Sequence record: OZ035806.1
Source: Felixounavirus NRG857CP1
Reading direction: 5' to 3' (one strand)
Length of the DNA stretch: 64,000 nt
The translations under genes and the position numbers were made by a program. Each line of letters begins with the position of its first letter. The first letter of the stretch is position 1. Shown piece by piece: positions 30,106-63,775 of this stretch. Under the pieces are notes generated by a model. That model did not search any database and was not told the DNA's origin. It saw only the letters and a list, made by a program, of their open reading frames with translations.

Positions 30106-30657
30106 TCAACTTAGTTTTGCAAACTCTCCGTGGAGTTTAATAGCAGCTTCACAGTAAGCTTTATGGGCTTCTTCTGGTGTGTCAAACATACCAAGATGAT
30201 AGTTTTTACCTTGTAAACGTATCATTGCTCGAAACCTTTTACTTATCTTCTGTACACCTTTTGGCAACCCAGATGGGGACTCTCTTGACCGATTGCAAGA
30301 GTTTTGTGAAGCTGTACAAACCCTTAAATTCAAGTACCTATTGTCCCAACCGTCCCCATTCTTATGGTCAACCTGTAAGGTTTTATCAGGTAGATATCCA
30401 TCCATATACAAGATAACTAAACGATTTGCTTGGTAACCCCTTCCATCAATCAGCAACTGAACTGACTTGTGTCCATCAGTATTTGTTCTGTAGTTTCCAG
30501 CCCTCTTACCTCCAAATCTAGAGTTAAAGTTTGCATTACCTTCTCTAAACTTCCAAGTAAAGACCCCTGTTTCGGGGTCGTAGTCCAATAGCTCCTTAAG
30601 ACGAATTTCTGTAATCATTTCAACACCATCAATGCACTTCCAACCAGCTCTTACCAA
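30106..30657 (-). CDS. HNH homing endonuclease with AP2-like DNA-binding domain
   Basis: HNH motif QVDHKNGDGWDNRYLNLRV...QN; C-terminal AP2-like GVQKISKRFRAMIRLQGKNYHLGMFDTPEEA; paralogue of 40197-40721; alternative start at 30618 would remove the overlap with the polymerase. Confidence 0.7.
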   Translation of the reverse strand: MVRAGWKCIDGVEMITEIRLKELLDYDPETGVFTWKFREGNANFNSRFGGKRAGNYRTNTDGHKSVQLLIDGRGYQANRLVILYMDGYLPDKTLQVDHKNGDGWDNRYLNLRVCTASQNSCNRSRESPSGLPKGVQKISKRFRAMIRLQGKNYHLGMFDTPEEAHKAYCEAAIKLHGEFAKLS

Positions 30658-39196: not shown

Positions 39197-40243
39197 ATGG
39201 AGAAGTACACATTAACAAAACTTCCCGATTCAGTTACACATGTTTTTATTGACTCTGACAGTATTGCCTATAAAGGTGCTTGTGTAGTTGAGAAAGCAAA
39301 ATATAAATATGTCAATAAACTCACAGCAGAAGAATCTGAACCATTTGATAATGCGAAAGATGCTGCAAGATGGTTAGCAGACCAGAGAATCCTTGTGGAA
39401 GAACTTGGCCTGACATTTGATGAAGATGAATGGGAAAGACAGACTTGGAAAGAAGCTAAGAGTGAAAAAGAAGCTATCATGGCTACTCAACAGGTTCTTC
39501 AGGAATGGCTTAAGGTTGTTGGTAAAGAGAGAACTTGGGTAGGTTACTTAACAGAGAAAGGTGTGCATAAACATAAAGACATTAAAGGTCTTGAGCACCA
39601 ATATCAAGGTAACCGTAAAGATGCTGTCACACCAACACACTTAGTTGCTTGTCGTGAATATCTTCTGTCAAGACCAGAGTTCAAACTCTTAAGGGGAGGC
39701 TTCGAAGCCGATTCAATCGTAATTGCTAAAGCTGAAAAGATGGGTAAGAAAGCTGCTCTTATGAGTATTGACAAAGACCTTCGACAAGCTGAAGGGACTT
39801 ATTGTATTGATATGACTTATGAAAAATCACCACTAATTTTTATCGCTGATAATAATGTTGGTAATATCTGGGATTGCCCTATCAAATCAAAACCAAAAGC
39901 TGCAAAAACAGTTGGTGTAGGTTTTAAATTCTTGTGTTATCAGGCTGTTGCTGGAGATAATGCAGACAACTACTTCGGCCTAAAAGGTGCTGGTAAAGTA
40001 GCTGTGATGAATGCTTTAGAGGGTAAAGAGACCTACAAAGAGTGTCTTGACGCTATCTATGAACTTTATGCTAAAAAAGACTCTTATACCTATGTGTCAT
40101 GGGATGGACAGACCGTTACAAAGACGCCGTTAGAGTTAATGGAACAGCATTTCTTCCTAGCTTATCAAGAGCGAAATAAATCAGATATTTTTTCATTTGA
40201 AAAGTATGGTTGGACTCCAAATGTTGACTCAGCAGATACTTAA
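39197..40243 (+). CDS. 5'-3' exonuclease / flap endonuclease (FEN-like)
   Basis: N-terminal VFIDSDSIAYKGA (cf. IDG-S-A-R of 5' nucleases), YQGNRKD, helix-hairpin-helix-like FGLKGAGKVAVMNAL; complements a polymerase lacking a 5' nuclease domain. Confidence 0.55.
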   Translation: MEKYTLTKLPDSVTHVFIDSDSIAYKGACVVEKAKYKYVNKLTAEESEPFDNAKDAARWLADQRILVEELGLTFDEDEWERQTWKEAKSEKEAIMATQQVLQEWLKVVGKERTWVGYLTEKGVHKHKDIKGLEHQYQGNRKDAVTPTHLVACREYLLSRPEFKLLRGGFEADSIVIAKAEKMGKKAALMSIDKDLRQAEGTYCIDMTYEKSPLIFIADNNVGNIWDCPIKSKPKAAKTVGVGFKFLCYQAVAGDNADNYFGLKGAGKVAVMNALEGKETYKECLDAIYELYAKKDSYTYVSWDGQTVTKTPLELMEQHFFLAYQERNKSDIFSFEKYGWTPNVDSADT

Positions 40244-40721
40244 AGAATATCTACACTATGACCCCGAAACAGGGGTCTTTACGTGGATAAAGAAATCAGC
40301 TAAAAGAACAGTTATAGGTTCCATTGCAGGTACACCACATAAGCGAGGTTATATTAGGATAAAAATTAAAAGAAAACCCTATATGGCTCATGATTTAGCA
40401 ATCCTGTACACAGACGGTTTCCTACCTAACAGAGTAGACCATCGAAATGGTATTACTAATGATAATCGGAGATTAAATCTAAGGGTTTGCACACAAGCTG
40501 AAAACTCTTGGAATAGAAGAACACACTCCAACAACACATCTGGAGTTAAGGGTGTATCTTTCTATAAGGCTAACCAAAAATGGAAGGCCAGAGTTATGAC
40601 ACACGGAGTATCTCACTTTCTGGGGTATTTTGACAGTATTGAAGATGCCAAAGATGCAGTCACAAAGAAAAGAGAAGAACTACATAAAGAGTTTTCAAAT
40701 CACGGAGAAGCTTATGAATGA
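40197..40721 (+). CDS. HNH homing endonuclease with AP2-like domain
   Basis: VDHRNGITNDNRRLNLRVCTQAEN HNH core; C-terminal GVKGVSFYKANQKWKARVMTHGVSHFLGYFDSIEDA; N-terminal YDPETGVFTW shared with 30106-30657. Confidence 0.7.
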   Translation: MKSMVGLQMLTQQILKEYLHYDPETGVFTWIKKSAKRTVIGSIAGTPHKRGYIRIKIKRKPYMAHDLAILYTDGFLPNRVDHRNGITNDNRRLNLRVCTQAENSWNRRTHSNNTSGVKGVSFYKANQKWKARVMTHGVSHFLGYFDSIEDAKDAVTKKREELHKEFSNHGEAYE

Positions 40722-41215
40722 AGATTAAAGGATTTGGCAATTGCCCTACCTACGGTCATTGGGTATCTTTATGTGGGGAAGTTGACCCCACTAAACATTT
40801 TGGCTTTGTCTATTTAGTGCACTGTAAGAAGACTGGACAATATTATATCGGAAAGAAACAGTTTAACAGTGTGACCAAAAGAAAAGTTGCTGGGAAGACT
40901 CGGAAGAAGATAGTCACTAAGGAAAGTGATTGGATGACTTATGAGACTTCTTCTGAGTATATTAAAAAAGATATTGAGAGTTTTGGAAAAGAATTTTTTG
41001 ACTTTTACATTATTCAGACCTACTACACAAAAGGTGGCCTAGTCTATGGTGAAGCAAACCTTCAACATAAATTCGATGTAATGACAAAAAGGATTGACTC
41101 TAAGCTCAGACTCTTCTACAATGCCAATATTGCAGCAATTAAGTTTATCACTAAAGAAACTTATGAAGATGCTGAAAAAAGAATCCATAAGGTAATGAAA
41201 GCAAATTGTGCTTGA
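40718..41215 (+). CDS. GIY-YIG-like endonuclease (putative)
   Basis: N-terminal FGFVYLVHCKKTGQYYIGKK resembles the GIY...YIG motif; basic; immediately follows the HNH gene. Confidence 0.4.
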   Translation: MKIKGFGNCPTYGHWVSLCGEVDPTKHFGFVYLVHCKKTGQYYIGKKQFNSVTKRKVAGKTRKKIVTKESDWMTYETSSEYIKKDIESFGKEFFDFYIIQTYYTKGGLVYGEANLQHKFDVMTKRIDSKLRLFYNANIAAIKFITKETYEDAEKRIHKVMKANCA

Positions 41216-41221
41216 TAACTA

Positions 41222-41485
41222 TTGAGAGAGAATAAAATGTTTAACAAAAGTAAAGCTGTGAGTCATGTAGCAAAAGTTGACAGCAAGATTGAAGAACTTG
41301 AGCGCATCCTTGCAAATGCTAGAGAGTCAATAATTAAAGAAGTTGAAGCTGTTGAGTCTCAAATGCAGCACCTAATGCTTAAACGTCAAGAGCTACGTGA
41401 ACATCTAGAATATATTGAAACACGAGAGCTAAAGGTTAACAAATATTTTAAGGAGTCCGAATGTTTAACTCAAGAGAATCAGTAA
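41222..41485 (+). CDS. hypothetical coiled-coil protein
   Basis: 87 aa ORF; likely start at ATG 41237. Confidence 0.3.
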   Translation: MRENKMFNKSKAVSHVAKVDSKIEELERILANARESIIKEVEAVESQMQHLMLKRQELREHLEYIETRELKVNKYFKESECLTQENQ

Positions 41486-42216
41486 AAAACTGGAACCTTC
41501 GTTGTGGAAACACTCAAAAGCAACCTTACAGTGATGAGTATTGGGAATCTTTAAAATCTCAATCTCTGTGTATGCTTGAAGAAGCAAAAGAGCTTGTAAA
41601 AGCAATTGAAGAGAAAGACCCCATTGAGACACTGGATGCTCAGGCAGATTTGCAATATGTTCTTGACGGTTTGATTTATCTGTCACAACATGACCATAAC
41701 GGTGCTATGAAAGCTGTTTGCCATAATAATGACCTGAAGTACACAGATAACTATGAAGAAGCTTTAAAACGTCTTGCAGACATTGAAAAGCGTACTGGTC
41801 AAGAGTGTATTATCAGAATGTCAGTAGTTGATGGTAAAGAGTGGTATGCTATTGTTCGTGCAGCCGATGGGAAGATTATGAAGCAATCAAATCTCCCTAA
41901 AGTACAGCTTGGTGAATACATTGTAGAACTTGAAAGCCAAGAACTTTTTGTGGTAGTATCTGAGACATGCGTTATTTGCAAAGGTATTGTAGGTAGCTTA
42001 AAGGATTTGGGTGTAGATGGTTTTGTAGAAGTTAATCCAATTACCTCTAAAGCAGATAAAGACTTCTGTAAAGAGAACGGACTATGGATTGCAGATATTG
42101 TCTACTATGATGGTGAGCAGTTCCATGTAACCTCATACCCGAAACTGAATTATGATGCTAATAACCTGAAGTGCTGGTTAAAAGGGGTTGGTTATAATGG
42201 ATTCACAGAACATTAA
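41461..42216 (+). CDS. MazG-like nucleotide pyrophosphohydrolase domain protein (putative)
   Basis: LEEAKELVKAIEEKDPIETLDAQADLQYVLDGLIYL fits the E-E-x-x-E...D-x-x-D MazG/all-alpha NTP-PPase pattern. Confidence 0.4.
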   Translation: MFNSRESVKNWNLRCGNTQKQPYSDEYWESLKSQSLCMLEEAKELVKAIEEKDPIETLDAQADLQYVLDGLIYLSQHDHNGAMKAVCHNNDLKYTDNYEEALKRLADIEKRTGQECIIRMSVVDGKEWYAIVRAADGKIMKQSNLPKVQLGEYIVELESQELFVVVSETCVICKGIVGSLKDLGVDGFVEVNPITSKADKDFCKENGLWIADIVYYDGEQFHVTSYPKLNYDANNLKCWLKGVGYNGFTEH

Positions 42217-47001: not shown

Positions 47002-49146
47002 ATGAACAAAGTACAGATTATTAAAAAGAATGGCTCACTTGAAGAACCTGATATCAAAAAAGTTTTAGCAGCAGTCACAAAATCAGCTAACAGAGTTGGT
47101 TATAAAGAGCTTCCACCAGATGTTACTCAAGCTCTTGAGTCAGCATTTATGAGGATTCTGGTAAAGTCCACTAAGCAGAATAATTTGCTAATTTCGGTAA
47201 ATGATATTCACAGTATTGTTGAGGGTGCTTTGGCAGAAGTCAATCACGAGATTTATGAGTCTTACTCAACATATAGAAATTACCGTAAAGAAGTTGCTCA
47301 AAATTGGGATGAACTCTACCAGAAGACTAAAGATACACTCTTCTTAGGTGACCGTGAAAATGCTAACTTTGACAGTAGTTTAATTTCTACAAAAGGTTCA
47401 ATTATTCGTGGTTATCTGACTAAAGAAATCTTTAAACAGTACCATTTAACACCAGAGGAACTGGAAGCCATTGAAAAAGGATTTATCTATATCCATGATT
47501 TAAGAGACCTGATTTTTGGTGGTATCAACTGTTGCCTGTTTGACATTGGTAAAGTCCTGAAAGGTGGCTTTGAAATGTCTGGCATCGAATATTGTGAACC
47601 AAAGTCTGTGCTGTCGGCCTTACAGGTTATTGGTGACGTAGTTCTTTCAGCAACTGCACAACAATTTGGTGGCTTTACTTTAGCAGAGATTGATAAGGTA
47701 CTTGTACCGTATGCTAAGAAGTCTCTACGCTATCATGCTGAGAAAGCAGCATCTTATGGTATTCCTAAAGAACATTACCACAATTATGTCATGGAGCAGC
47801 TACAGATTGAACTGACTCAAGGTTTCCAGTCACTTGAAATGAAACTAAACACTGTACCTTGTAGCCGTGGGGATTTTGCATTCACAACTTTGACATTCGG
47901 GTTACTTGACTCAGATATGTCCAATGAAGATAACCGACTGCAATATATGATTGCAAGTACCCTCCTAGATGTTCGTATGAATGGTCAAGGTAAGAGCAAG
48001 AAACCTGTTGTATTCCCTAAACTGGTTTATATTTATGACCAGAAGAGACATGATGAAAATATCTGTCAAAGTCACCTGTACAGTAAAGCTATTGAGTGTT
48101 GCTCTAAAGCAATGTATCCAGACTTCTTAAGTGTATCTGGTCATGGTGCTGTAGCAGAGGCTTTTGAGCGTTCTGGCAAGGTTATTTCGCCGATGGGTTG
48201 CCGAGCGTTCTTATCTCCGTATCTTAACGAGAATGGGGAAGAGTTCTACGTTGGTCGTGCTAACATTGGTGCTGTATCTTTGAACTTACCAATGATTTAC
48301 CAGTATTCTAAAGAGAATGGTTTAGATTTCTGGAAAGAGCTTGATAAGTACCTAGAGATGATTCGTAGTTTCCACAAGAAACGTTACGAAATGATTGCTA
48401 ATATGCCAGCAAGTTCTAACCCTCTTGCATTTACACAAGGTGGTCTGTACAAAGGAACTAAGAAGCCTACTGACAAGGTTGGTTGGGATATTGTGAAGTC
48501 CTTCACAGCTTCTTTTGGTGTTACTGCGCTTGATGAGCTATCTGTTCTTGCTGAAGGTAAACGACTTCATGAAGTTGGAAGCTGTAGTTTTGCATACGAT
48601 GTTCTGGCATACATCAACATGAAAACTGAAGAGTTTAAAAATGAAGATGGCTTCTTATATGCCGTCTATGGTACTCCAGCAGAATCACTTTGCGGAACTC
48701 AGTTAAAACAGTTCAGAGATATGTTTGGCGTTATCAAAGGTGTTTCTGATAAGGAATACTTTACAAACAGTTTCCATATGAATGTTGCAGCAGACATCTC
48801 ACCATTTAAGAAGCAGGACTTAGAAGAGCCATTCTTCCATATCTGTAGAGGTGGTAGAATCCAGTATGTCAGGGTAGCTAATCCAGAAAACTTAACAGCA
48901 CTTAAAAGTTGTATTACCAGAGGGATGTTGAAAGGTTTCTATCAGGGGCTTAACTTTGACTTAGCAATCTGTGAACATTGTGGTAACAGACCAAAGGCTG
49001 ATGTTGAAGAATGTGAGGTTTGTCATTCACACGATATCTCTGTGATTAACAGGGTGTGCGGGTACTTGTCATTCACAAAAATTAAAGGTCAGTCTCGAAT
49101 GAATGACGCTAAGATGGCAGAAATTAAGGATAGGGTTTCTATGTAG
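47002..49146 (+). CDS. nrdD: anaerobic ribonucleoside-triphosphate reductase, class III
   Basis: 714 aa; C-terminal zinc ribbon CEHCGN...CEVC and glycyl-radical motif RVCGYL. Confidence 0.9.
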   Translation: MNKVQIIKKNGSLEEPDIKKVLAAVTKSANRVGYKELPPDVTQALESAFMRILVKSTKQNNLLISVNDIHSIVEGALAEVNHEIYESYSTYRNYRKEVAQNWDELYQKTKDTLFLGDRENANFDSSLISTKGSIIRGYLTKEIFKQYHLTPEELEAIEKGFIYIHDLRDLIFGGINCCLFDIGKVLKGGFEMSGIEYCEPKSVLSALQVIGDVVLSATAQQFGGFTLAEIDKVLVPYAKKSLRYHAEKAASYGIPKEHYHNYVMEQLQIELTQGFQSLEMKLNTVPCSRGDFAFTTLTFGLLDSDMSNEDNRLQYMIASTLLDVRMNGQGKSKKPVVFPKLVYIYDQKRHDENICQSHLYSKAIECCSKAMYPDFLSVSGHGAVAEAFERSGKVISPMGCRAFLSPYLNENGEEFYVGRANIGAVSLNLPMIYQYSKENGLDFWKELDKYLEMIRSFHKKRYEMIANMPASSNPLAFTQGGLYKGTKKPTDKVGWDIVKSFTASFGVTALDELSVLAEGKRLHEVGSCSFAYDVLAYINMKTEEFKNEDGFLYAVYGTPAESLCGTQLKQFRDMFGVIKGVSDKEYFTNSFHMNVAADISPFKKQDLEEPFFHICRGGRIQYVRVANPENLTALKSCITRGMLKGFYQGLNFDLAICEHCGNRPKADVEECEVCHSHDISVINRVCGYLSFTKIKGQSRMNDAKMAEIKDRVSM

Positions 49147-49153
49147 AATACAA

Positions 49154-49717
49154 ATGAATTACGAACTAATATATAATGCAATTATTAAAAAGGCACATTC
49201 TGAAAGGGGTGTGCCTCTCACATACTACAAATGTCAAGGTAAGGGTTATGAAAGACACCATATCATACCAGTATGTCTAGGTGGCGATAAAATTAGTGGA
49301 GATAACATTGCTTTACTTACACCTAGAGAGCATTATATAGCTCATAAATTACTGGTTAAGATGTATCCAAACAATCATAAGTTATGGTTTGCATGGAGCA
49401 GGTTAGCTCATGATGGCCTAGATAGGAAAATATCATCCAGAGACTATGAAAAGGTAAGGGCTTTAAACTCGAAAGCTCTATCGATTGTGAATAAAGGTAG
49501 GGTTTTCACTGAAGAGCATCGAAGACGATTAGGAGAAGCTCAAATAGGTAATACAAAGTCAAAAGGTTGTAAAAGGTCTATGGAAACAAGGAAGAAGATG
49601 TCAGAAGCCGGAAAAAAGCCAAAGAAAAAGAAAACTTGCCCGCATTGTGGCATGACTGGTGGTGCTGGTAACATGACTCGATATCATTTTGACAATTGTA
49701 AGAAAAAAAAAAAATAA
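49154..49717 (+). CDS. HNH homing endonuclease with NUMOD-like repeats
   Basis: ERHHIIPVCLGGDKISGDNIALLTPREHYIAH HNH core; two NUMOD-like units (FTEEHRRRLGEAQIG, SMETRKKMSEAG); Lys-rich C-terminus; start at ATG 49154 just after nrdD stop. Confidence 0.7.
   Translation: MNYELIYNAIIKKAHSERGVPLTYYKCQGKGYERHHIIPVCLGGDKISGDNIALLTPREHYIAHKLLVKMYPNNHKLWFAWSRLAHDGLDRKISSRDYEKVRALNSKALSIVNKGRVFTEEHRRRLGEAQIGNTKSKGCKRSMETRKKMSEAGKKPKKKKTCPHCGMTGGAGNMTRYHFDNCKKKKK
49703..49716 (+). repeat. homopolymeric A tract at 3' end of HNH gene
   Basis: About 13 consecutive A encoding the terminal lysines. Confidence 0.8.
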
Positions 49718-50779: not shown

Positions 50780-51265
50780 ATGAATTACATGGAGATTAGG
50801 CCATTTGACACAGCTAATGGTGAAGGGGTTCGTGTAAGCCTCTTCGTAGCTGGTTGTAAGCATCACTGCGAAGGCTGCTTTAACAGGGAGTCTTGGAAGT
50901 TTAATGCTGGTAAAGAGTTTACTTATGCAAACCTCTACGGTATCATTAAGTTAATGGATGATGAGGCCATCAGTGGGTTGTCAATACTCGGTGGAGAGCC
51001 TCTGGATGATAGAAATATTCAAGAGGTTACCAACATATGCAAGCGTATTAAAACTGTTTATCCAGAAAAGTCTATATGGCTTTGGACAGGTTTTCAGTTA
51101 CATGAAAAAATTCACCTTGATGTGATGAAATATGTTGACGTGGTGATTGATGGTAAGTATGATTCATCTAAACCAACAGTTAAACCGTATCGTGGTTCAG
51201 ATAACCAAAACCTCTGGAGAAAAGAGTACGGATGGCAAGGTGATTGTCAGTGGAGAGCAGAGTGA
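50780..51265 (+). CDS. nrdG: anaerobic RNR activating protein (radical SAM)
   Basis: CxxxCxxC radical-SAM cluster motif CKHHCEGCFN; 161 aa. Confidence 0.8.
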   Translation: MNYMEIRPFDTANGEGVRVSLFVAGCKHHCEGCFNRESWKFNAGKEFTYANLYGIIKLMDDEAISGLSILGGEPLDDRNIQEVTNICKRIKTVYPEKSIWLWTGFQLHEKIHLDVMKYVDVVIDGKYDSSKPTVKPYRGSDNQNLWRKEYGWQGDCQWRAE

Positions 51266-51345
51266 TTATTCTGGCAAATGGACTAAGGTATAACTCCAAT
51301 TGGTATCACTGAAGAAGAACTTCATAAGTTCTGTATTAAACTTTA

Positions 51346-51627
51346 ATGAGAGAGGCTAAAATGGGAATTTTAGGTAATATGAAAGCTGGCTTCTTGAAGG
51401 CACTGGCAAAAGCAGCAGCAATCATTTCTATGACTGGAAAGCAGGTTGGTGTAGATGCTTCAGCAGTTGCACAAGTTCTTACAAGCCAAATTGAACAGCA
51501 ACCTTACATCTATGTAGGCCGTGGCAAAGGTGGTAAGAAACAAGCCCACCGTCCGTCTGGTGCAGCAGCTATTAAACGAGCAGCCAAGAAAGCTCGTAAC
51601 CGTAAACGTAATAAGAAGGCTAAATAA
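51346..51627 (+). CDS. small protein with highly basic C-terminus
   Basis: C-terminus KKQAHRPSGAAAIKRAAKKARNRKRNKKAK. Confidence 0.35.
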   Translation: MREAKMGILGNMKAGFLKALAKAAAIISMTGKQVGVDASAVAQVLTSQIEQQPYIYVGRGKGGKKQAHRPSGAAAIKRAAKKARNRKRNKKAK

Positions 51628-51629
51628 TC

Positions 51630-51950
51630 ATGAGCAAAGTTTATAACACTCGCAAATTACAGATTTTCGTACTGTGCCAGTTTATGGCTAAAGAATACAA
51701 CTTCTACTATTGCGGCACAGGTTTTATTAGTGATGATGATGGCTCATACCTTCCATTCAAAGAAGCTGTGAAGCTCTTTAATGAAGAGGAAAGCTCTAAG
51801 AAAGATATTGAAAAGGTGAAACTGACCTACAGCAAGAAAGATAAGAAGATTATCTGCCTAGATAACTTTGTAAAAGTTACTGGAAAAGCAAAAGAGCTTA
51901 TGGATGAGAGTGAGATTCCATTCACAAGCCTCTTGAAAGTAGCTCAGTAA
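51630..51950 (+). CDS. hypothetical protein
   Basis: 106 aa ORF followed by terminator. Confidence 0.35.
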   Translation: MSKVYNTRKLQIFVLCQFMAKEYNFYYCGTGFISDDDGSYLPFKEAVKLFNEEESSKKDIEKVKLTYSKKDKKIICLDNFVKVTGKAKELMDESEIPFTSLLKVAQ

Positions 51951-51963
51951 ACAGATACTATAG

Positions 51964-51990
51964 GGGAACTGTAAAGGTTCCCTTTTTATT
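51964..51990 (+). terminator. intrinsic terminator
   Basis: stem gggaac / gttccc with 7-nt loop, then tttttatttt. Confidence 0.6.
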
Positions 51991-52001
51991 TTGGAGGTAA
52001 A

Positions 52002-52517
52002 ATGTATCTGTCAAACCTGAAACGTTCGGTTGCAATGTCAGTTCTAAGACTCAGCTTTGATGAGCGTCAAGAATTTATAGACTCCCACAAATATGACCCT
52101 TCAAATTCTAATCACATGGTTCTTTGGAATCGTGATAACTTCCGTGAAAGAGCACTTGTCCGTTATTACCCACACTACACAATAGATAACCTGTATGAAT
52201 GGTGTGTTGTGAAGAACACCATTGCAACACTGAACAATCTTTGCAGGTATACGGGTAAGCAAACATTTACACTAGGCCACCACAAACCTGTTACAAAGGG
52301 TGGTGAGCATCACTGTGCAAACTGGTTTATCCAGACTAAACTTGATAACCAGAAGCAAGGAGATAACCTTCTAAGCACACCTAAGATGACCTATGAAGAG
52401 CAAGAGAAATATATCAAAAACAATATGCCAGATGTGCTTGACAACAACTATACAGATTTGGCAATATCTCTCCTGTTGAAGTTCGAGACAGTTTATAGGG
52501 CAACTTACAATGGCTAA
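52002..52517 (+). CDS. HNH-motif protein (putative small nuclease)
   Basis: LGHHKPVTKGGEHHCANWFIQTKLDNQKQG resembles an HNH core (HH...N...N). Confidence 0.35.
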   Translation: MYLSNLKRSVAMSVLRLSFDERQEFIDSHKYDPSNSNHMVLWNRDNFRERALVRYYPHYTIDNLYEWCVVKNTIATLNNLCRYTGKQTFTLGHHKPVTKGGEHHCANWFIQTKLDNQKQGDNLLSTPKMTYEEQEKYIKNNMPDVLDNNYTDLAISLLLKFETVYRATYNG

Positions 52518-52788
52518 AGAAAAGTGGGAGATTTTACCATTAGTCAGTGAAGGTGGTAATGGTTGTGAGATGTACATGATACGTGGTCATGTCCCAGAGC
52601 CAATTGCACTTGAGATGGTAAACAACTTTACAGATGGTTCTTACAAAGACTTAGGCGAACCAACTGTCAAGCAACAATGGGTTAAACCTGTACCAGACAG
52701 CACAGGTAACTGTAGTGTACTTTATCACGTTGTAGACCCTGCAAAATGCAAATCTGCAATGGCAGTAACAAACGTAACTTTTGATTGA
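52510..52788 (+). CDS. hypothetical protein
   Basis: 92 aa ORF. Confidence 0.3.
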   Translation: MAKEKWEILPLVSEGGNGCEMYMIRGHVPEPIALEMVNNFTDGSYKDLGEPTVKQQWVKPVPDSTGNCSVLYHVVDPAKCKSAMAVTNVTFD

Positions 52789-52799
52789 GAGAGAAAACT

Positions 52800-53681
52800 A
52801 TGAAAACATCTATCCGTGTTACAGTTCATTCACCAACTAAAGGGACTCATGAAGAAGAGTTTAACATCATCCAATTTCCTTCTGGTGAGATTGGTGGACA
52901 CTTTTCGCCAGAGTTTGTTGATTTCACTGCTTATGCAGCATCATCCATCAACAATGTGATTATGATTGTAAAAGGTTATGATAAGGACACATTGTTTGCT
53001 GTGGCACTTGCTAAAGAAGCAATTGATGATTTAATTCCTCATGATTATGCTTTAAAGACTGTCATCTTTTACTACTTACCAAATGCACGATATGACCGTC
53101 ACATGTTTAAAGGCGACGCAGCAGCTTTAAAGGTTTTTGCTAAACAGGTAAATGCAATGGGATTTGGTGCAGTCTGTGCAGTTGACCCTCACAGTTACGT
53201 TCCAGATAACCTGTTTAACTGCTTCCAGAGTATTCCTCAAAAGGAGATTGCAGTCCACTATGCAAATGACCCACTGGTTGATTACTTAGTAGCCCCAGAT
53301 GCAGGTGCTGCTAAGAAGGTTGCAGAGACAGCTAAAGAGGTGGATAAACCATATATCACAATGTCTAAGGTGCGTAACCTTAAGACTGGTGAAATTACTG
53401 GTATGCGAATCCTTGATGATGTTGATTTGACAGATAAAACCGTCATGATTCTGGATGATATCTGTGATGGTGGTCGAACCTTCATAGAAGCAGCTAGACA
53501 TCTTCGTGAAGCAGGTGCAAAACGTGTGGAACTCTATGTAACACATGGTATCTTCTCTAAAGATGTTGAAAACCTTCTTGACAATGGCATTGACCACATC
53601 TACACTACAAACTCTTTAGGGGAAGCTAAAGACCGTGGCTTAACACATTATGGTCAAGTTACTGTAGCAAACCTTGATTAA
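52800..53681 (+). CDS. PRPP synthetase (ribose-phosphate pyrophosphokinase) family protein; candidate ADP-ribose pyrophosphokinase of a phage NAD+ reconstitution pathway
   Basis: Aligns by eye with Prs: YLPNARYDR (cf. YFGYARQDR), LVAPDAGAAKKV, PRPP-loop VMILDDICDGGRTF, THGIFS; start at ATG 52800 (ORF open to 52785). Confidence 0.75.
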   Translation: MKTSIRVTVHSPTKGTHEEEFNIIQFPSGEIGGHFSPEFVDFTAYAASSINNVIMIVKGYDKDTLFAVALAKEAIDDLIPHDYALKTVIFYYLPNARYDRHMFKGDAAALKVFAKQVNAMGFGAVCAVDPHSYVPDNLFNCFQSIPQKEIAVHYANDPLVDYLVAPDAGAAKKVAETAKEVDKPYITMSKVRNLKTGEITGMRILDDVDLTDKTVMILDDICDGGRTFIEAARHLREAGAKRVELYVTHGIFSKDVENLLDNGIDHIYTTNSLGEAKDRGLTHYGQVTVANLD

Positions 53682-53690
53682 AACTTTATA

Positions 53691-53711
53691 GGGGCTTAAA
53701 AGCCCCATTTT
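53691..53711 (+). promoter_or_regulatory. stem-loop between the Prs-like and Nampt-like genes
   Basis: ggggct-taaa-agcccc followed by atttt; weak terminator or RNA processing/attenuation signal. Confidence 0.35.
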
Positions 53712-53726
53712 GAGAGAGATTAAAAG

Positions 53727-55508
53727 ATGACTAAATCACTTTATGCAGTACCAGCAGGTTTAAACGCAGATGCTTACAAATCTGGTCACATTTACCAGTA
53801 TCCTAGTGCAACAGAATACTTGATGTTCAACCTGACACCACGTAGTGATAAATGGTTTAACAGCCCTTTAGCAATTGACGGTGTAGTGGCTTTTGGTATT
53901 CAACGTTTTGTTAAAGATTACTTGATAGACCACTGGAATGCCACTTTCTTTGAACGTGATAAAAAAGAAGCCATTGATGAAATCTTAGAAGTCATGAATG
54001 GTGTTCTGGGTAAAGATGCTATCGGTCGAGAGCATTGGGAAGCACTTCACGACTTAGGTTATCTACCAGTTGAAGTATACGCTGTAGAAGAAGGCACAGT
54101 TGTTCCAATGCGTGTCCCGATGATTGTCTTTCAGAACACTGTTTCAGGTTTTCATTGGGTAGCAGGTTATCTGGAAGATGCTTTCTCTGCTGAAATTTGG
54201 AAGGCTTGCACCATTGCAACTATTGCATTGCATTACAAACGCATCTGTAAGAAGTGGGCTGAACTTACTTGTGACAATGACTTACATTTACCTTATCAGT
54301 GCCATGATTTTGCTATGCGTGGTATGTCCGGCTTTACTGATGACGCATTTAACGCTGTAGGCCACTTAACCAGCTTTAAAGGAACTGATAGCTTCCCTGC
54401 TGTGTATACGGCTAAACGAATCTATGGACAGCCTTACCCAATCTCTGATATTGGTAGCTCTGTACCAGCCACTGAGCACTCTGTAATGTGTGCAAACATT
54501 GCTTGGGAAGGTGGTAATGAGTTGATTGAAGAAGAAAGACGCTTTAAAGGTGAGTTACAAACCTTCCGTCGCTTCTTAACAGAAACTTACCCAACTGGTA
54601 TTGCAAGTGTTGTTTCAGACACTTATAACTTCTGGAGAACTGTGTCAGAAATTTTACCAGCACTTCGTAAAGAAATTATGGAACGTGATGGCAAACTGGT
54701 AATTCGTCCTGACTCTGGAGACCCTGTACATATTGTCACAGGTTATAAAGCAATCCACTTAGAATGTGCTAAGAAGGCTTATTATGAACATCTTAGCAAG
54801 CTGGAAGCTAGTGATACAATGCTAAGCTCTGTCCTGAACATGAAGCTTGAAAACATCAACTATGGTATTGCTGGATGGCTACTGTCAGAAGGCTACGAAA
54901 TGGTTGTTGACAGAGAAGACTTTGAAGTTGCTGATACAGTGATGTTGAAAAATGCTTATATGGTTGGTTCTGCAAACGTTGTAACACGTCCTATAGCTGA
55001 GATTGATGGAGCTATTAAGACTCTGTATAACATCTTTGGAGGAACTATTAACTCTAAAGGTTTTAAGGTACTTGATGAGCACATTGGCCTTATCTATGGC
55101 GACTCTATCACGTTGGAACGTGCAAACGAAATCCTGAAGCGTCTGTATGAAATGGGTTTTGCAAGCTCTAACGTAGTTTTTGGTGTAGGTTCTTACACTT
55201 ATCAGTACATGACTCGTGACACCTTTGCATTTGCTGTTAAAGCAACTCTTGCAAGCATCGGTGGTAAAGAGATTATGCTTGCAAAAGACCCTAAAACAGA
55301 TAGTGGTGTTAAGAAATCTGCCTTTGGTGGTGTAGCACCTATGTGGGATGGTGATAAGCTGAAAGCTGTAGATGGCTACGGATTCCAGAGTTTTGCAGAT
55401 GTACTTGACCACCCAGCTTGTGCTTTACGTTTAGTCTTTAGTGACTCTGAGCAGTTTGGTTACACAACTCTTGGTGATATTCGAAATAATATTGACAAGC
55501 AGCTTTAA
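53727..55508 (+). CDS. nicotinamide phosphoribosyltransferase (Nampt) family protein; candidate nicotinamide ADP-ribose transferase
   Basis: Nampt-family blocks: DAYKSGHIYQYP, CHDFAMRGMSGF...FKGTDSFPAV, SVPATEHSVM, SVVSDTYNFW, VIRPDSGDPVHIV, GLIYGDSI; 593 aa, longer than typical Nampt. Confidence 0.8.
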   Translation: MTKSLYAVPAGLNADAYKSGHIYQYPSATEYLMFNLTPRSDKWFNSPLAIDGVVAFGIQRFVKDYLIDHWNATFFERDKKEAIDEILEVMNGVLGKDAIGREHWEALHDLGYLPVEVYAVEEGTVVPMRVPMIVFQNTVSGFHWVAGYLEDAFSAEIWKACTIATIALHYKRICKKWAELTCDNDLHLPYQCHDFAMRGMSGFTDDAFNAVGHLTSFKGTDSFPAVYTAKRIYGQPYPISDIGSSVPATEHSVMCANIAWEGGNELIEEERRFKGELQTFRRFLTETYPTGIASVVSDTYNFWRTVSEILPALRKEIMERDGKLVIRPDSGDPVHIVTGYKAIHLECAKKAYYEHLSKLEASDTMLSSVLNMKLENINYGIAGWLLSEGYEMVVDREDFEVADTVMLKNAYMVGSANVVTRPIAEIDGAIKTLYNIFGGTINSKGFKVLDEHIGLIYGDSITLERANEILKRLYEMGFASSNVVFGVGSYTYQYMTRDTFAFAVKATLASIGGKEIMLAKDPKTDSGVKKSAFGGVAPMWDGDKLKAVDGYGFQSFADVLDHPACALRLVFSDSEQFGYTTLGDIRNNIDKQL

Positions 55509-55522
55509 AAGTATATGATAAG

Positions 55523-55545
55523 AGGCTCCTACGGGAGCCTTTTTA
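55523..55545 (+). terminator. intrinsic terminator
   Basis: stem aggctcc / ggagcct with tacg loop, then tttt. Confidence 0.6.
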
Positions 55546-55561
55546 ATTTCTGGAGAAAACT

Positions 55562-55897
55562 ATGAAAATCAAAGAGATGAACATCAACATTGTCTTAGAA
55601 GAACGTTGGGAGAACATCAAGAAGCCTGAAGATGGTCATAAGTTCCTTAACAAAATCTTGGTAGCAGCTAAAGAAGAACTGACTGGCAAGGTCGCAGCAG
55701 CAATCACAATAAAGGTCTGCGTAAAAGGTCTTCCGCAACATCACCAATTTGCACTTGACGAGTTTAAAGAGAGCTTCTACAATCCAAACAAACAGATGCT
55801 TGAAAGTAACTTTGCAGTGTCTACAAGTATTGTCCATGACAGAAGCTTTATCCTTTACAAGAATATGAGAGGTGAGTCATGCAAGCATATTGGATAG
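55562..55897 (+). CDS. hypothetical protein
   Basis: 111 aa ORF. Confidence 0.35.
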   Translation: MKIKEMNINIVLEERWENIKKPEDGHKFLNKILVAAKEELTGKVAAAITIKVCVKGLPQHHQFALDEFKESFYNPNKQMLESNFAVSTSIVHDRSFILYKNMRGESCKHIG

Positions 55898-56055
55898 AAA
55901 TTTTACTGTCACTTGGTAGTGTAGCAGTATTTGTTTACCTCCTTTGTAAGTACTTTGCAGAGCACAAAAAATGTGACTACTGTAATGGAGAGGGGTACAT
56001 AAGGGCAGGATGTTGCCCTATGTGTGGTGGTTCTGGTAAAATGTTTAATAAGTAA
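55879..56055 (+). CDS. small membrane-anchored zinc-finger protein (58 aa, below ORF-track cutoff)
   Basis: Translates to MQAYWIEILLSLGSVAVFVYLLCKYFAEHKKCDYCNGEGYIRAGCCPMCGGSGKMFNK: one TM helix plus CxxCxGxG...CxxCxGxG DnaJ-type zinc motif. Confidence 0.3.
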   Translation: MQAYWIEILLSLGSVAVFVYLLCKYFAEHKKCDYCNGEGYIRAGCCPMCGGSGKMFNK

Positions 56056-56083
56056 TTTAACAGTAAACTGAGAGGAAAGTATT

Positions 56084-58450
56084 ATGCGCATGGTAAACGA
56101 CCACGCAGAAGTGATTAAGAGTTCAACTTCTTTAGAGACGTCTCAAGCACAGATTACAATGACACCTGAAATGTTCAGCCTTTTGAGTTCTGGTGTATAT
56201 ACCTTTAAAGAAAGGGCAGTGATTCGTGAACTGTCATGTAACGCAGTAGATGCTCAGAAAGAAGCTGGAAAAGAGAATATCCCGTTCCATGTGCATTTAC
56301 CTACTCGTTTTGAGCCTTACTTTGAAGTCCGTGATTTTGGAACTGGATTGACTCATGATAAAGTTATGAGTTTGTACCTAAACTACGGGGCTTCTACGAA
56401 GAATGACTCTAATGATTACATTGGTGCAATGGGTATCGGCTCAAAATCTCCATTTGCAATTGCTCAGTCATTCACAGTATCTAGCTATGTTGACGGTGTT
56501 GTTAATAAGTACTCAGTTTACCTTGAGAATGGTATCCCTCAAGTAACTAAGCTTACTACCAACCCAACAAAGGAACCTAATGGCTTAGCTGTACGTGTAG
56601 CAGTTGCTGACCATCGTATCTCAAAATTCTTTGAAGAAGCTGGTCACGTATACTCATACTTTGCTGTAAAACCAGAAAGCAATATCGAGTATGACGATGT
56701 ATTAGCAGATATGAACGTCATTGCCCGTGAAGAAGGTGTTTATGATGCCATGATTCATAAGCAAAGCTGGCGTTCTAGTAGTAACAGGACAGAGTTTAAT
56801 GTGGTGATGGGTAACATTGCATACCCTGTTAACATGGAAGCATTACTTGGTGATGATTTCTTCAAAGTCTTGCCAGAATTTTTCCGTAGGAGCGTAGACC
56901 TTGTAAACATCTACATGCCTATTGGTTCAGTTGCTATTGCAGCTTCTCGTGAAGCATTGCAGATGAATGACACGACAAAAAATGTTATCATTGAGGCTAC
57001 TAAAAAGATAACTGAAGCAATTACAAAGGATGTTATCAAGAAAGTTAATAGCCAACCTACACTCATGGATGCTGCACAGGCTTATGCTGAGTTACGTTTG
57101 AACTCACGAGAGATGTTTAATGCTGTGTGTACAAAGCTAGAGTGGGGAGGTGTTAAGCTTGATTCTCTGGAAGAAGAATTACTAAACATTCGTCGTGGAA
57201 TTATCTACGCAGAGGACGGCTCAGTCATCTATGAACGTGACGGCAAAGGTAATATTAAGGTTGACAGTAAAGGAAACAACATTCCTAAAGTGGACTACCT
57301 ATACAATCCAGTTGCTTATGTTAAGTTCAACTCTTTAGAGAGTAAGATTCGTGCAACAGCACTTTCCTACACTCAAGAGGCGAGCATGTTCAATATCTTT
57401 GGTGCAATGCGTAAAAGTCAAATTGAACAGTTTTTGTTCGTGATTAATGACCGTCGCAATAAAAACGGTACTGAGAAGACTGTAGGACGCAATCAAATCT
57501 TGCGTGGTGCATGTCGAGATTATGCCAGTGAGTCGAATCTGTTTCACAGATACAATGGTATTGTGTTTGTATTCTCGACTGAAAAAGAGTTAGATGATTT
57601 AATCAATCTACATAAACTTGATAAAAGCTTGTTAAAGATTGTGAAAATGTCTGATAAGGAGCACCATTACCAGCGCAAAGAAGCTGTAAGGGGTGTTGTA
57701 AAACTCTGGAAAGCTGTTCCAGCAGAAGGTGTAGCTTCCTATAAAGAGGTTTCAGAGGACTTTGATACAATTGAAGAACCTCAGCTTTACATTAAGGCAG
57801 TTGGTGACACAGTTGATGGCGAATGTTTTTGCTCATCTCCAGAAGATGTAGCCAAGTCAGTTGCTAATGTTACAGGGAAGACAGTCTATGTTTTCCGAAA
57901 AGCAAATTGGAAAAAGATACCAGAAGACTGGATTGAAGTAGATGAGAAACTCTTGAACGACAGCTTAACTGATGTTCATTGGATTAATCATAACAGGTAT
58001 ATGACACGTATCTATATGAATGGTGTCCTTGACCTTACAAGCAGTTGGATTATTGCCAGAAACTTTACGTTCAATAACAGGAAGATTTCTCGTGGCTATT
58101 GCTATTCACGGGATACAAACAAAACTATCTTCCTAGAAGGAAATGAAGATGCTGTAGAGGCAATGTTCGGTAAAATCCAATACGTTGCTGCACCATTTGC
58201 ATACACTTATACTATTAGTGTATTGAAAACTTTGAAAGACTGTCTTGACAATGATACAAAGCTTTACAAGAAAATTAAGAAAGCTGGTGACCGTATGGTC
58301 ATTAAGGTGACAAACTACCTTTCAAAAAGAAAACAAGAAAACTTCTTGCTTTCTCATTTAGATTGGAATAAAGTGTCACCCATCGAAGTGAGTAAGTTCT
58401 TAGGCTTTGATGTAAAATGTGTTCCAGAAGGGACTACAATTTATGATTAA
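56084..58450 (+). CDS. rIIA: rIIA-like protein with N-terminal GHKL-type ATPase domain
   Basis: GHKL boxes: ELSCNAVDA (N box), VRDFGTGL (G1), GAMGIGSKS (G2); 788 aa, size and architecture as T4 rIIA. Confidence 0.5.
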   Translation: MRMVNDHAEVIKSSTSLETSQAQITMTPEMFSLLSSGVYTFKERAVIRELSCNAVDAQKEAGKENIPFHVHLPTRFEPYFEVRDFGTGLTHDKVMSLYLNYGASTKNDSNDYIGAMGIGSKSPFAIAQSFTVSSYVDGVVNKYSVYLENGIPQVTKLTTNPTKEPNGLAVRVAVADHRISKFFEEAGHVYSYFAVKPESNIEYDDVLADMNVIAREEGVYDAMIHKQSWRSSSNRTEFNVVMGNIAYPVNMEALLGDDFFKVLPEFFRRSVDLVNIYMPIGSVAIAASREALQMNDTTKNVIIEATKKITEAITKDVIKKVNSQPTLMDAAQAYAELRLNSREMFNAVCTKLEWGGVKLDSLEEELLNIRRGIIYAEDGSVIYERDGKGNIKVDSKGNNIPKVDYLYNPVAYVKFNSLESKIRATALSYTQEASMFNIFGAMRKSQIEQFLFVINDRRNKNGTEKTVGRNQILRGACRDYASESNLFHRYNGIVFVFSTEKELDDLINLHKLDKSLLKIVKMSDKEHHYQRKEAVRGVVKLWKAVPAEGVASYKEVSEDFDTIEEPQLYIKAVGDTVDGECFCSSPEDVAKSVANVTGKTVYVFRKANWKKIPEDWIEVDEKLLNDSLTDVHWINHNRYMTRIYMNGVLDLTSSWIIARNFTFNNRKISRGYCYSRDTNKTIFLEGNEDAVEAMFGKIQYVAAPFAYTYTISVLKTLKDCLDNDTKLYKKIKKAGDRMVIKVTNYLSKRKQENFLLSHLDWNKVSPIEVSKFLGFDVKCVPEGTTIYD

Positions 58451-62989: not shown

Positions 62990-63775
62990 ATGGGTATTGT
63001 AAAAATCATCAATGGTGATATCTTTGCTGCATTTGATAAAGGTAAGTTTGACATCATTGGTCATGGTTGTAACTGCATGAACCTAATGGGCGCAGGTATC
63101 GCTGACAAGATTTCTAAACTTTACCCAAAAGCATATGAGACCGATACAGAAGTTTATCTCTATGCAGGTGGTATAGGTCACAAACCCTGTGAGAATTTAC
63201 TAGGTAATTTCTCTGTAGCACGCTTAAAACAAGGTCGTATAGCTAACCTTTACACTCAGCTTAAGACTGGTAAAGATGCCCGATACAGTGCTTTAGAGTC
63301 ATCTTTGAAACAGCTTAACAGATACTGTGAAGTCAATCAGTTGAAGAAAGTTGGTTTACCTATGATTGGTGTAGGTATCGGTGGACTTGACCCTCAAGCC
63401 GTCACAGTTATCATCAATCAGGTGATGAAGAGTGTAGATGTTTATCTATATGTCTATGAAGGAGAGATGTACCACAAGTTACTCTCAGGTTGGAAGAACT
63501 ACTGTGAACCAGAATACTTTGCAGGTGTAGCAGTGTTCACAGATAACGCAGTTACCCTCTTCAGACGAAGAAAAGGTAAGATACATCAAAGTAACCCTCC
63601 GGTTGAAAAGATGTCTCTAAGTAACGCTCTAGTTACCCACCTGTCAAAGAGCAATCACAGAATTGCTGTAACATTTGGTAGTGATGCAGAAGCTTATATC
63701 TATGCAAGAACTGATGAGGATATTGAGGCAATCTTCTCTTCACCAGAAGTTACCTTCTTAGACGCAAAGAACTAA
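62990..63775 (+). CDS. macrodomain-like (ADP-ribose binding/processing) protein
   Basis: N-terminus IINGDIFAAFDKGKFDIIGHGCNCMNLMGAGIADKI matches the macrodomain pattern GDIT...D-x-IVNAAN...GGGV by eye. Confidence 0.45.
   Translation: MGIVKIINGDIFAAFDKGKFDIIGHGCNCMNLMGAGIADKISKLYPKAYETDTEVYLYAGGIGHKPCENLLGNFSVARLKQGRIANLYTQLKTGKDARYSALESSLKQLNRYCEVNQLKKVGLPMIGVGIGGLDPQAVTVIINQVMKSVDVYLYVYEGEMYHKLLSGWKNYCEPEYFAGVAVFTDNAVTLFRRRKGKIHQSNPPVEKMSLSNALVTHLSKSNHRIAVTFGSDAEAYIYARTDEDIEAIFSSPEVTFLDAKN

Follow-up and report, generated by a model that had tools for sequence, protein, structure and literature searches.

A phage gene pair resembling Prs and Nampt is probably the NARP1 pathway of NAD+ reconstitution, found again in the genus of its type example

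Which pathway does a phage encode when a gene resembling Prs, the cellular phosphoribosyl pyrophosphate (PRPP) synthetase, directly precedes one resembling the nicotinamide phosphoribosyltransferase Nampt? Such a pair lies in Felixounavirus NRG857CP1 (sequence record OZ035806.1), within a stretch of 64,000 nucleotides, here called the window, which forms the first 64 kb of the full genome (OZ035796.1, an unannotated record of 84,421 bp); bases 52700-55600 are 100% identical to OZ035796.1, at equal coordinates. An initial annotation, made from the letters of the window, had favored reconstitution of nicotinamide adenine dinucleotide (NAD+) from ADP-ribose over classical salvage. Our analysis leads to the same preference, on the basis of orthology to genes 79-80 of phage Bas63, a diagnostic signature in the second protein, Namat, and the failure to find an adenylyltransferase (Nmnat) for nicotinamide mononucleotide (NMN). 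We conclude that the pair is very probably NARP1, orthologous to those Bas63 genes. The novelty implied by calling it a candidate module was over-rated, however: this is an already known system, found again in the genus of its own type example and nearly in the type sequence. The locus consists of the following features.

52800..53681, + strand: adps, putative ADP-ribose pyrophosphate synthetase (PRPS-like; first NARP1 enzyme), 293 aa, assigned by Pfam, PHROG and orthology
53727..55508, + strand: namat, putative nicotinamide ADP-ribose transferase (Nampt-like; second NARP1 enzyme), 593 aa
51962..51990, + strand: upstream terminator-like hairpin (51962-51984) and T-run, with a 9-bp stem, 4 GC pairs and a T-rich tail; a consensus match only
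55520..55549, + strand: downstream terminator-like hairpin (55520-55543) and T-run, with a 10-bp stem and 5 GC pairs, 12 nt past the namat stop

NARP1 was discovered in genes 79-80 of the BASEL phage Bas63 (JohannRWettstein) (Osterman et al., bioRxiv 10.1101/2024.02.11.579819). Its first enzyme, Adps, converts ADP-ribose and ATP to ADP-ribose pyrophosphate (ADPR-PP), and its second, Namat, converts ADPR-PP and nicotinamide to NAD+ (bioRxiv 10.1101/2024.02.11.579819). Bas63 lacking genes 79-80 is sensitive to the defense system SIR2-HerA and suffers a deeper depletion of NAD+; the counter-defense is kept in a ΔpncC ΔnadR host; and ADPR-PP (m/z 720.010) is seen only with wild-type Bas63 in defense-carrying cells (bioRxiv 10.1101/2024.02.11.579819). 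Homologues from SpβL1 supplied the in vitro chemistry: SpβL1 Adps gave no product in a Prs-type assay, and SpβL1 Namat preferred ADPR-PP over PRPP (bioRxiv 10.1101/2024.02.11.579819). Activities have thus far been demonstrated for the SpβL1, ICP1, DyoEdafos and P. foliorum proteins, and for Bas63 in vivo. The original survey found NARP1 in 859 phage genomes, with a Namat neighbor for 97% of Adps-clade genes, and NARP1 and NARP2 together in no phage.

Applied to the phage studied here, the pathway would start when a host defense (SIR2-HerA, DSR1/2, Thoeris, SEFIR, Kongming or others) splits NAD+ into ADP-ribose and nicotinamide. Adps would move the beta,gamma-pyrophosphate of ATP onto the terminal ribose of ADP-ribose, giving ADPR-PP, and Namat would swap this pyrophosphate for nicotinamide, yielding NAD+ directly, with no need for NMN or Nmnat; the price is one ATP. 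This phage itself contributes to the case its orthology, the conservation of residues for catalysis and specificity, the arrangement of the genes and the negative search for Nmnat; the chemistry (SpβL1, ICP1) and the counter-defense phenotype (the Bas63 deletion of 79-80) were demonstrated for orthologues. On this footing we infer that the proteins of this phage, the divergent Adps allele included, perform NARP1 chemistry.

The initial annotation had described two adjacent, co-oriented genes between terminators, and this arrangement is real: both open reading frames (ORFs) lie on the + strand, and the hairpins with their T-runs fall where they had been placed. The gap between adps and namat is 45 nt, which is the adjacency that marks NARP1. 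The adps frame offers an alternative start at TTG 52785, which would give 298 aa; ATG 52800, giving 293 aa, is the likely start, because a GAGAG Shine-Dalgarno-like stretch precedes it and the annotated Bas63 start corresponds to it. The hairpin at 51962-51984, by consensus match, closes the unit upstream of the pair. Terminator-like sites are not in excess, a 7-kb scan returning three against a mean of 4.5 in shuffled sequence; since their count is no higher than in shuffles, it is their position at gene ends, not their number, that argues for terminator function. Bas63 (MZ501086) is itself a Felixounavirus, in which the corresponding products, bas63_0079 and bas63_0080, measure 293 and 593 aa.

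The second protein carries the most specific evidence. All four blocks on which its assignment to the Nampt family had been based (DAYKSGHIYQYP, FKGTDSFPAV, SVVSDTYNFW and VIRPDSGDPV) are present in the translation, which matches the Pfam families NAPRTase (PF04095, 6e-35) and NAMPT_N (PF18127, 2.7e-5). By phmmer it scores 431 bits with SpβL1 Namat (9W5W, E 7e-128), 350 with H. ducreyi NadV, 182 with Xanthomonas Nampt and ~141-144 with human NAMPT. An AlphaFold2 model built with 35 homologues has a mean predicted local distance difference test (pLDDT) score of 93.3, and Foldseek returned the SpβL1 Namat crystals 9W5X and 9W5W as its best matches, with a target-normalized template modeling score of 0.95. 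The comparison with characterized enzymes that the initial annotation had proposed places Namat nearest to SpβL1 Namat by both sequence and fold, and Adps nearer to phage Adps than to E. coli Prs.

What separates Namat from Nampt is a selectivity clamp that holds the adenine of ADPR-PP and consists of two parts, the SCH helix and the SCL loop (PMC12774641). The SCH consensus is GS-X-Φ-X-Φ-X-Φ-TRD, in which positions 3 and 7 are aromatic; the third residue of SCL is Arg, Lys or Tyr, and if it is Lys or Tyr the fourth residue stacks, as modeled for Bas63 (PMC12774641). Both elements can be recognized here.

55188..55220, + strand: SCH signature G488-S-Y-T-Y-Q-Y-M-T-R-D498, which fits the Namat consensus
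53844..53867, + strand: SCL loop S40-D41-K42-W43, with Lys third and Trp fourth (the predicted stacking residue), identical to Bas63

The corresponding SCH segments compare as follows.

Namat of this phage: GSYTYQYMTRD
SpβL1 Namat: GSFTYQYNTRD
Haemophilus ducreyi NadV (9KE8, deposited as Nampt): GAQTYQRNTRD
Xanthomonas Nampt: GGALLQKVDRD

The Nampt-like catalytic core is kept as well (D15, Y17, F195, R198, D221, the phospho-histidine H251, R327, D329, G458 and D459), and all of these residues except F195 are invariant in the 35-sequence alignment. The ratio of nonsynonymous to synonymous divergence (dN/dS) between Namat and its Bas63 counterpart is 0.04.

The initial annotation had also noted that the Nampt-like protein exceeds the canonical length by about 100 aa. 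The excess is real and resolves into two insertions relative to SpβL1 Namat (~490 aa) and bacterial homologues: one of ~15 aa near residues 258-272, and a larger one.

54753..55007, + strand: insertion of ~85 aa, Namat residues 343-427, predicted to form a compact alpha/beta subdomain

This subdomain is confidently modeled, with pLDDT above 90 in the full model and 89.4 when predicted alone, and no fold match to it was found; a limited literature search returned no discussion of it. In the alignment, this site is occupied by insertions of other kinds in homologues from other phages. The insertion is compatible with Namat function, because Bas63 Namat has the same one and works in vivo.

For the first protein, all three of the Prs-family blocks named in the initial annotation (YLPNARYDR, VMILDDICDGGRTF and THGIFS) were found in the translation, in agreement with the Pfam matches Pribosyltran (PF00156, 3e-12) and Pribosyl_synth (PF14572, 4e-10); the PHROG match is phrog_619 (5e-96). 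BLASTP of this Adps gave the following bit scores.

Bas63 Adps: 481
Erwinia phage Rouille: 166
SSE121: 158
PaGz-1: 138
ICP1 Adps: 115 (36% identity over 218 aa)
Noelle: 115
E. coli Prs: 61.6 (29% identity)

These values, which are bit scores and not a phylogeny, group the protein with phage Adps rather than with cellular Prs. In every phage of this set a Nampt-like gene lies directly downstream of adps or one small gene away.

We then compared residues with ICP1 Adps, in which the acceptor contacts are R87, H121, D161, D212, D213 and D216, the catalytic-loop lysine is K185 (K162 in SpβL1), the PP loop spans C215-S220 and the aromatic adenine contacts are F18' and F92 (PMC13586617). Adps was compared by sequence, in a four-way alignment whose N-terminal part is uncertain. 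Nine ICP1 residues, R87, H121, D161, K185, D212, D213, C215, D216 and F221, have identical counterparts here, namely R97, H131, D167, K190, D219, D220, C222, D223 and F228. At the donor site the picture is mixed: C222, D223, G224 and F228 are kept, but the PP loop reads GRT where ICP1 has AAS, and F223 maps to E230. Of the variable positions, only number 16 distinguishes this phage from the functional Bas63 allele: the position of ICP1 F18 is T16 here and F16 in Bas63. Both Felixounavirus alleles contain a QFPSGE motif (with F26) that aligns with RFSDGE of E. coli Prs. We take the "flag" phenylalanine of this Prs motif to stack on adenine from the neighboring subunit; given that role, F26 is a plausible substitute for ICP1 F18.

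Position 16 falls within a part of Adps that differs sharply between the two phages.

52800..53300, + strand: 5' part of adps (N-terminal domain) with a divergent allele, defined by a drop in DNA identity to Bas63

DNA identity to Bas63 is 95-99% in the flanks, 60-64% over 52800-53099, 76-80% up to 53300 and ~90% beyond; the fall sets in precisely at the start codon of adps and so marks a sharp mosaic boundary. In the protein, residues 1-136 are 67% and residues 137-293 are 88% identical to Bas63. In codons 1-100 synonymous sites are saturated (proportion of synonymous differences, pS, 0.81; dN 0.32), and in codons 101-293 dN/dS is 0.07-0.15. The divergence looks like that of an old allele that arrived by recombination and has been held under purifying selection; local positive selection as its cause is unsupported, since the synonymous sites are saturated. 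A search with the opening 504 nt of Bas63 adps sorted 254 records into three classes: 56 at 90% identity or more, 31 at 80-90% (including phiSUSP1 and Silverhawkium) and 167 at 60-80%, the listed records of the last band including close relatives of this phage. These counts make the experimentally studied Bas63 allele a minority form and the allele seen here the majority (167/254).

An Nmnat would be expected if the pair fed a classical route, and the initial annotation had recognized none. None emerged from our Pfam scans either, which covered 38 of ~111 ORFs of the 84-kb genome, including the remaining 20 kb beyond the window: every non-structural ORF of 130 aa or more that had no assignment, together with a few shorter ORFs and the neighbors of the pair. 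The structural module, ORFs whose Bas63 counterpart bears a name, and most ORFs below 130 aa lay outside these scans. Among the 38, no Pfam match to Nmnat (CTP_transf_like), NUDIX, NadR or PnuC was found. NARP2, the combination of Nampt with Nmnat, was rejected on this ground (no Nmnat, NUDIX or NadR in those ORFs), together with the presence of the Namat clamp and the opposing Bas63 genetics. NARP3, which combines PnuC and NadR, was rejected because neither had a Pfam match in the scanned set.

Could the pair nevertheless serve ordinary NAD+ salvage or boosting? A true PRPP synthetase would then supply an NMN-making Nampt, and the host enzymes NadR or PncC/NadD, or, as in NARP2, an unrecognized phage Nmnat, would finish the synthesis. 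The names point this way: among relatives infecting Escherichia, Salmonella, Shigella and Citrobacter, 258 phage records contain the pair, and their GenBank labels usually read ribose-phosphate pyrophosphokinase (prs) and nicotinamide phosphoribosyltransferase (nadV), and the Pfam and PHROG names are likewise those of Prs and Nampt. The GGRT of the PP loop also resembles cellular Prs, and NMN is made from PRPP in vitro by SpβL1 Namat. The functional data run the other way, however. Counter-defense by Bas63 persists in the ΔpncC ΔnadR host and ADPR-PP accumulates, and the SpβL1 enzyme yields no product in a Prs-type assay. The second protein has the aromatic SCH clamp by which Namat differs from Nampt; neither Nmnat nor NUDIX turned up among the scanned ORFs; identity to NARP2-type NadV is only ~28%; and no surveyed phage combined NARP1 with NARP2. 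We consider salvage very improbable. Another reading keeps the pathway NARP1-like and supposes that the N-terminal allele of Adps has changed its acceptor specificity or regulation, so as to use a modified ADP-ribose or to evade a host factor that targets Adps. The sharp mosaic junction at the start codon, where DNA identity is 60% in the first 300 nt and 95-99% in the flanking sequence, the three allele classes among relatives, and the N-terminal origin of the adenine-binding residues in ICP1, with F18 matched by T16 here and F16 in Bas63, would all suit this idea. Yet the saturated synonymous sites point to old divergence and recombination, not recent positive selection; the catalytic and ribose/phosphate contacts are all identical between the alleles, and F26 is in both; Namat, the partner enzyme, keeps 98% identity, which requires the product still to be ADPR-PP; and the allele is the majority form. 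We consider this account highly unlikely.

Several observations do weigh against the NARP1 assignment. Two ICP1 adenine contacts are not kept in the aligned sequence, F92 being M102 here (with F103 adjacent) and F18 being T16, and the PP loop, CDGGRT, is intermediate between CDGAAS of ICP1 and IDTGGT of E. coli. The N-terminal domain of Adps is only ~67% identical to the tested Bas63 allele, and in ICP1 this domain supplies the adenine contacts to ADP-ribose (PMC13586617). The Bas63 protein purified poorly (bioRxiv 10.1101/2024.02.11.579819), and for both Bas63 and this phage the chemistry is drawn from homologues that share 36-45% identity. Because SpβL1 Namat also makes NMN from PRPP in vitro (PMC12774641; bioRxiv 10.1101/2024.02.11.579819), some salvage-type activity of Namat may exist. 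Finally, the search for Nmnat, with its 38 of ~111 ORFs of mostly at least 130 aa, would miss an Nmnat outside Pfam.

The assignment to NARP1 raises the further question of whether this phage has an accessory phosphatase. When the defense system aRES cleaves NAD+, the product is ADPR-1''-phosphate, a compound that NARP1 is unable to use, and 15% of NARP1 phages encode in the operon (within two genes) a Macro-domain phosphatase, Adpp, an arrangement called NARP1-AP that has been validated for Vibrio phage Gary (bioRxiv 10.64898/2026.01.28.702374). One Macro-domain gene was found in the present genome.

62990-63772, + strand: Macro-domain protein, 261 aa (PF01661, 3.7e-7), orthologue of bas63_0095 "putative phosphatase", ~7.5 kb downstream of NARP1

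Residues 3-154 of this protein are 29% identical (pairwise E 9e-15) to gp169 of Vibrio phage Noelle. In Noelle the gene for gp169 has adps on one side and namat on the other, and it shares 97.5% identity with Gary's validated Adpp locus; Noelle and Gary both belong to the genus Thalassavirus. The Macro protein and gp169 also have the same profile of PDB matches, with TARG1/OARD1 best and Poa1p weak. The protein is thus possibly an accessory ADPR-1''-phosphate phosphatase, as judged from these similarities. PADLOC matches it to the macro domain of DarG (1e-12), which makes de-ADP-ribosylation an equally plausible role. In-operon NARP1-AP was rejected: a Pfam scan of the ORFs flanking the pair detected no Macro domain, and the only Macro gene found is the distal one. 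A wide distribution also speaks against a specific tie to NARP1: this Macro domain has homologues in 2,839 phage records, T-even-type phages such as T2 among them, and T-even phages are not known to have NARP1. At full length, with the ~100-aa C-terminal extension, the protein is found in 256 closely related records, about equal to the 258 with the NARP1 locus, a co-occurrence confounded by shared ancestry. No accessory genes of the RyDEP type were found among the scanned neighbors of the pair, ORFs below 115 aa elsewhere being outside the scan.

These features would also allow a dispersed, extended NARP1, in which the distal Macro protein would feed ADP-ribose to Adps and the 85-aa insertion and the Adps alleles could add lineage-specific regulation or evasion. 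This is a tentative proposal, and we think it rather unlikely to be correct. If it were, a Macro protein that turns ADPR-1''-phosphate or another ADPR derivative into ADP-ribose would be expected to confer resistance to aRES-type defense.

Two small ORFs that the initial annotation did not mention (52002-52517 and 52510-52788) share the terminator-bounded unit with adps-namat.

52002..52517, + strand: small ORF of 171 aa, phrog_3500, with a weak HNH-like motif HHKPVTKGGEHHCANW...N; its membership in NARP1 is only putative
52510..52788, + strand: small ORF of 92 aa, phrog_4726

The 171-aa ORF has a homologue of 51.5% identity upstream of adps-namat in Erwinia phage Rouille (Kolesnikvirus, Ounavirinae), where one small unrelated ORF stands between the homologue and adps. 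It is more conserved between the two phages than Adps itself (51.5% against 41%). Beside NARP1 in three other genera it had no counterpart, and for the 92-aa ORF the corresponding place in the other genera examined showed no homologue. Gene 77, the Bas63 orthologue of the 171-aa ORF, was not part of the deletion by which NARP1 was defined (bioRxiv 10.1101/2024.02.11.579819). On the other side of the pair, the window at ~55509-55561 has no counterpart of bas63_0081, a gap of ~350 nt in the alignment. An Rfam scan of 51000-56500 on both strands returned only one sub-threshold chance match, on the terminator hairpin. PADLOC matches to ShosT, PsyrT and DarG were set aside as no more than generic echoes of phosphoribosyltransferase and Macro domains.

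Some other genes of the genome deserve brief mention. Four putative homing-endonuclease genes, at 30106-30615 (- strand), 40206-40718 (+), 40718-41212 (+) and 49103-49714 (+), sit among genes for replication and nucleotide metabolism; two are of the HNH_3+AP2 type, one is a SegE-like GIY-YIG and one, with NUMOD3, adjoins nrdD. The annotation of Bas63 gives nrdD in two joined pieces, with a homing endonuclease between them. At 41461-42213 (+) lies a putative nucleotide pyrophosphohydrolase of 251 aa with a MazG-like PRA-PH domain (PF01503, 8e-6). Outside the window, at ~76793-78205 (+) of OZ035796.1, a protein of 471 aa that combines DUF2828 and DUF7788 with a weak VWA domain is encoded just upstream of the site of the Bas63 tRNA gene cluster.

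The main practical consequence is a correction of annotation: the labels prs and nadV carried by the relatives imply salvage through PRPP and NMN, and the evidence favors Adps and Namat. Counter-defense of this kind would let phages of E. coli and Salmonella, many of them candidates for typing or therapy, replicate despite SIR2-HerA, DSR, Thoeris, SEFIR and similar NAD+-depleting systems. The roles of the Adps alleles, the purpose of the Namat insertion and the link to the Macro protein could refine the picture of NARP1; they would not change it.

How, then, does the locus compare with known systems? It is closest to NARP1 of Bas63, with which it shares the genus, gene order, gene lengths, the upstream genes 77-78 and the downstream terminator context. 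The Namat proteins are identical at 583 of 593 positions (98%) without gaps, and the 85-aa insertion and both clamp elements are common to them. The Adps proteins also align without gaps, at 229 of 293 identical positions (78%), but the first ~100 codons are another allele (residues 1-60 are 58% identical in amino acids), and in Bas63 a further gene of 345 nt, bas63_0081, stands between namat and the next ORF. SpβL1 NARP1 has the same two-gene pathway, Namat fold, catalytic residues and SCH motif; its Namat is ~38% identical in the Foldseek alignment and lacks the 85-aa and 15-aa insertions, and its SCL stacks via Arg40, whereas K42-W43 is found here as in Bas63. ICP1 Adps is likewise a PRPS-like two-domain protein with the catalytic lysine, the acceptor and ribose contacts and a DDICDG that opens the PP loop, and like the present protein it has a shorter C terminus than E. 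coli Prs. It differs in overall sequence (36% identity), in having F92, F18 and F223 where M102, T16 and E230 stand here, and in a PP loop that ends AAS, not GRT.

The more distant systems share less. Gary NARP1-AP (Adps-Adpp-Namat) has a homologous Macro-domain protein in common with this genome, where, however, the Macro gene lies outside the operon, with at least 11 ORFs between, and has the ~100-aa C-terminal extension. NARP2 of KVP40 (NadV with the bifunctional Nmnat NatV) is similar in that a phage enzyme of the Nampt family restores NAD+ against a depleting defense. It needs an Nmnat and uses PRPP, however, and the Namat described here is ~28% identical to KVP40-like NadV; moreover, NadV of NARP2 is not associated with Prs, whereas here a Prs-like gene adjoins, which is what defines NARP1. 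With cellular Prs and Nampt/NadV the pair shares its folds and catalytic cores; the identities fall to 29% for E. coli Prs and 23-24% for human NAMPT, and the present proteins are set apart by the adenine clamp of Namat and by a shortened Prs C-terminal region.

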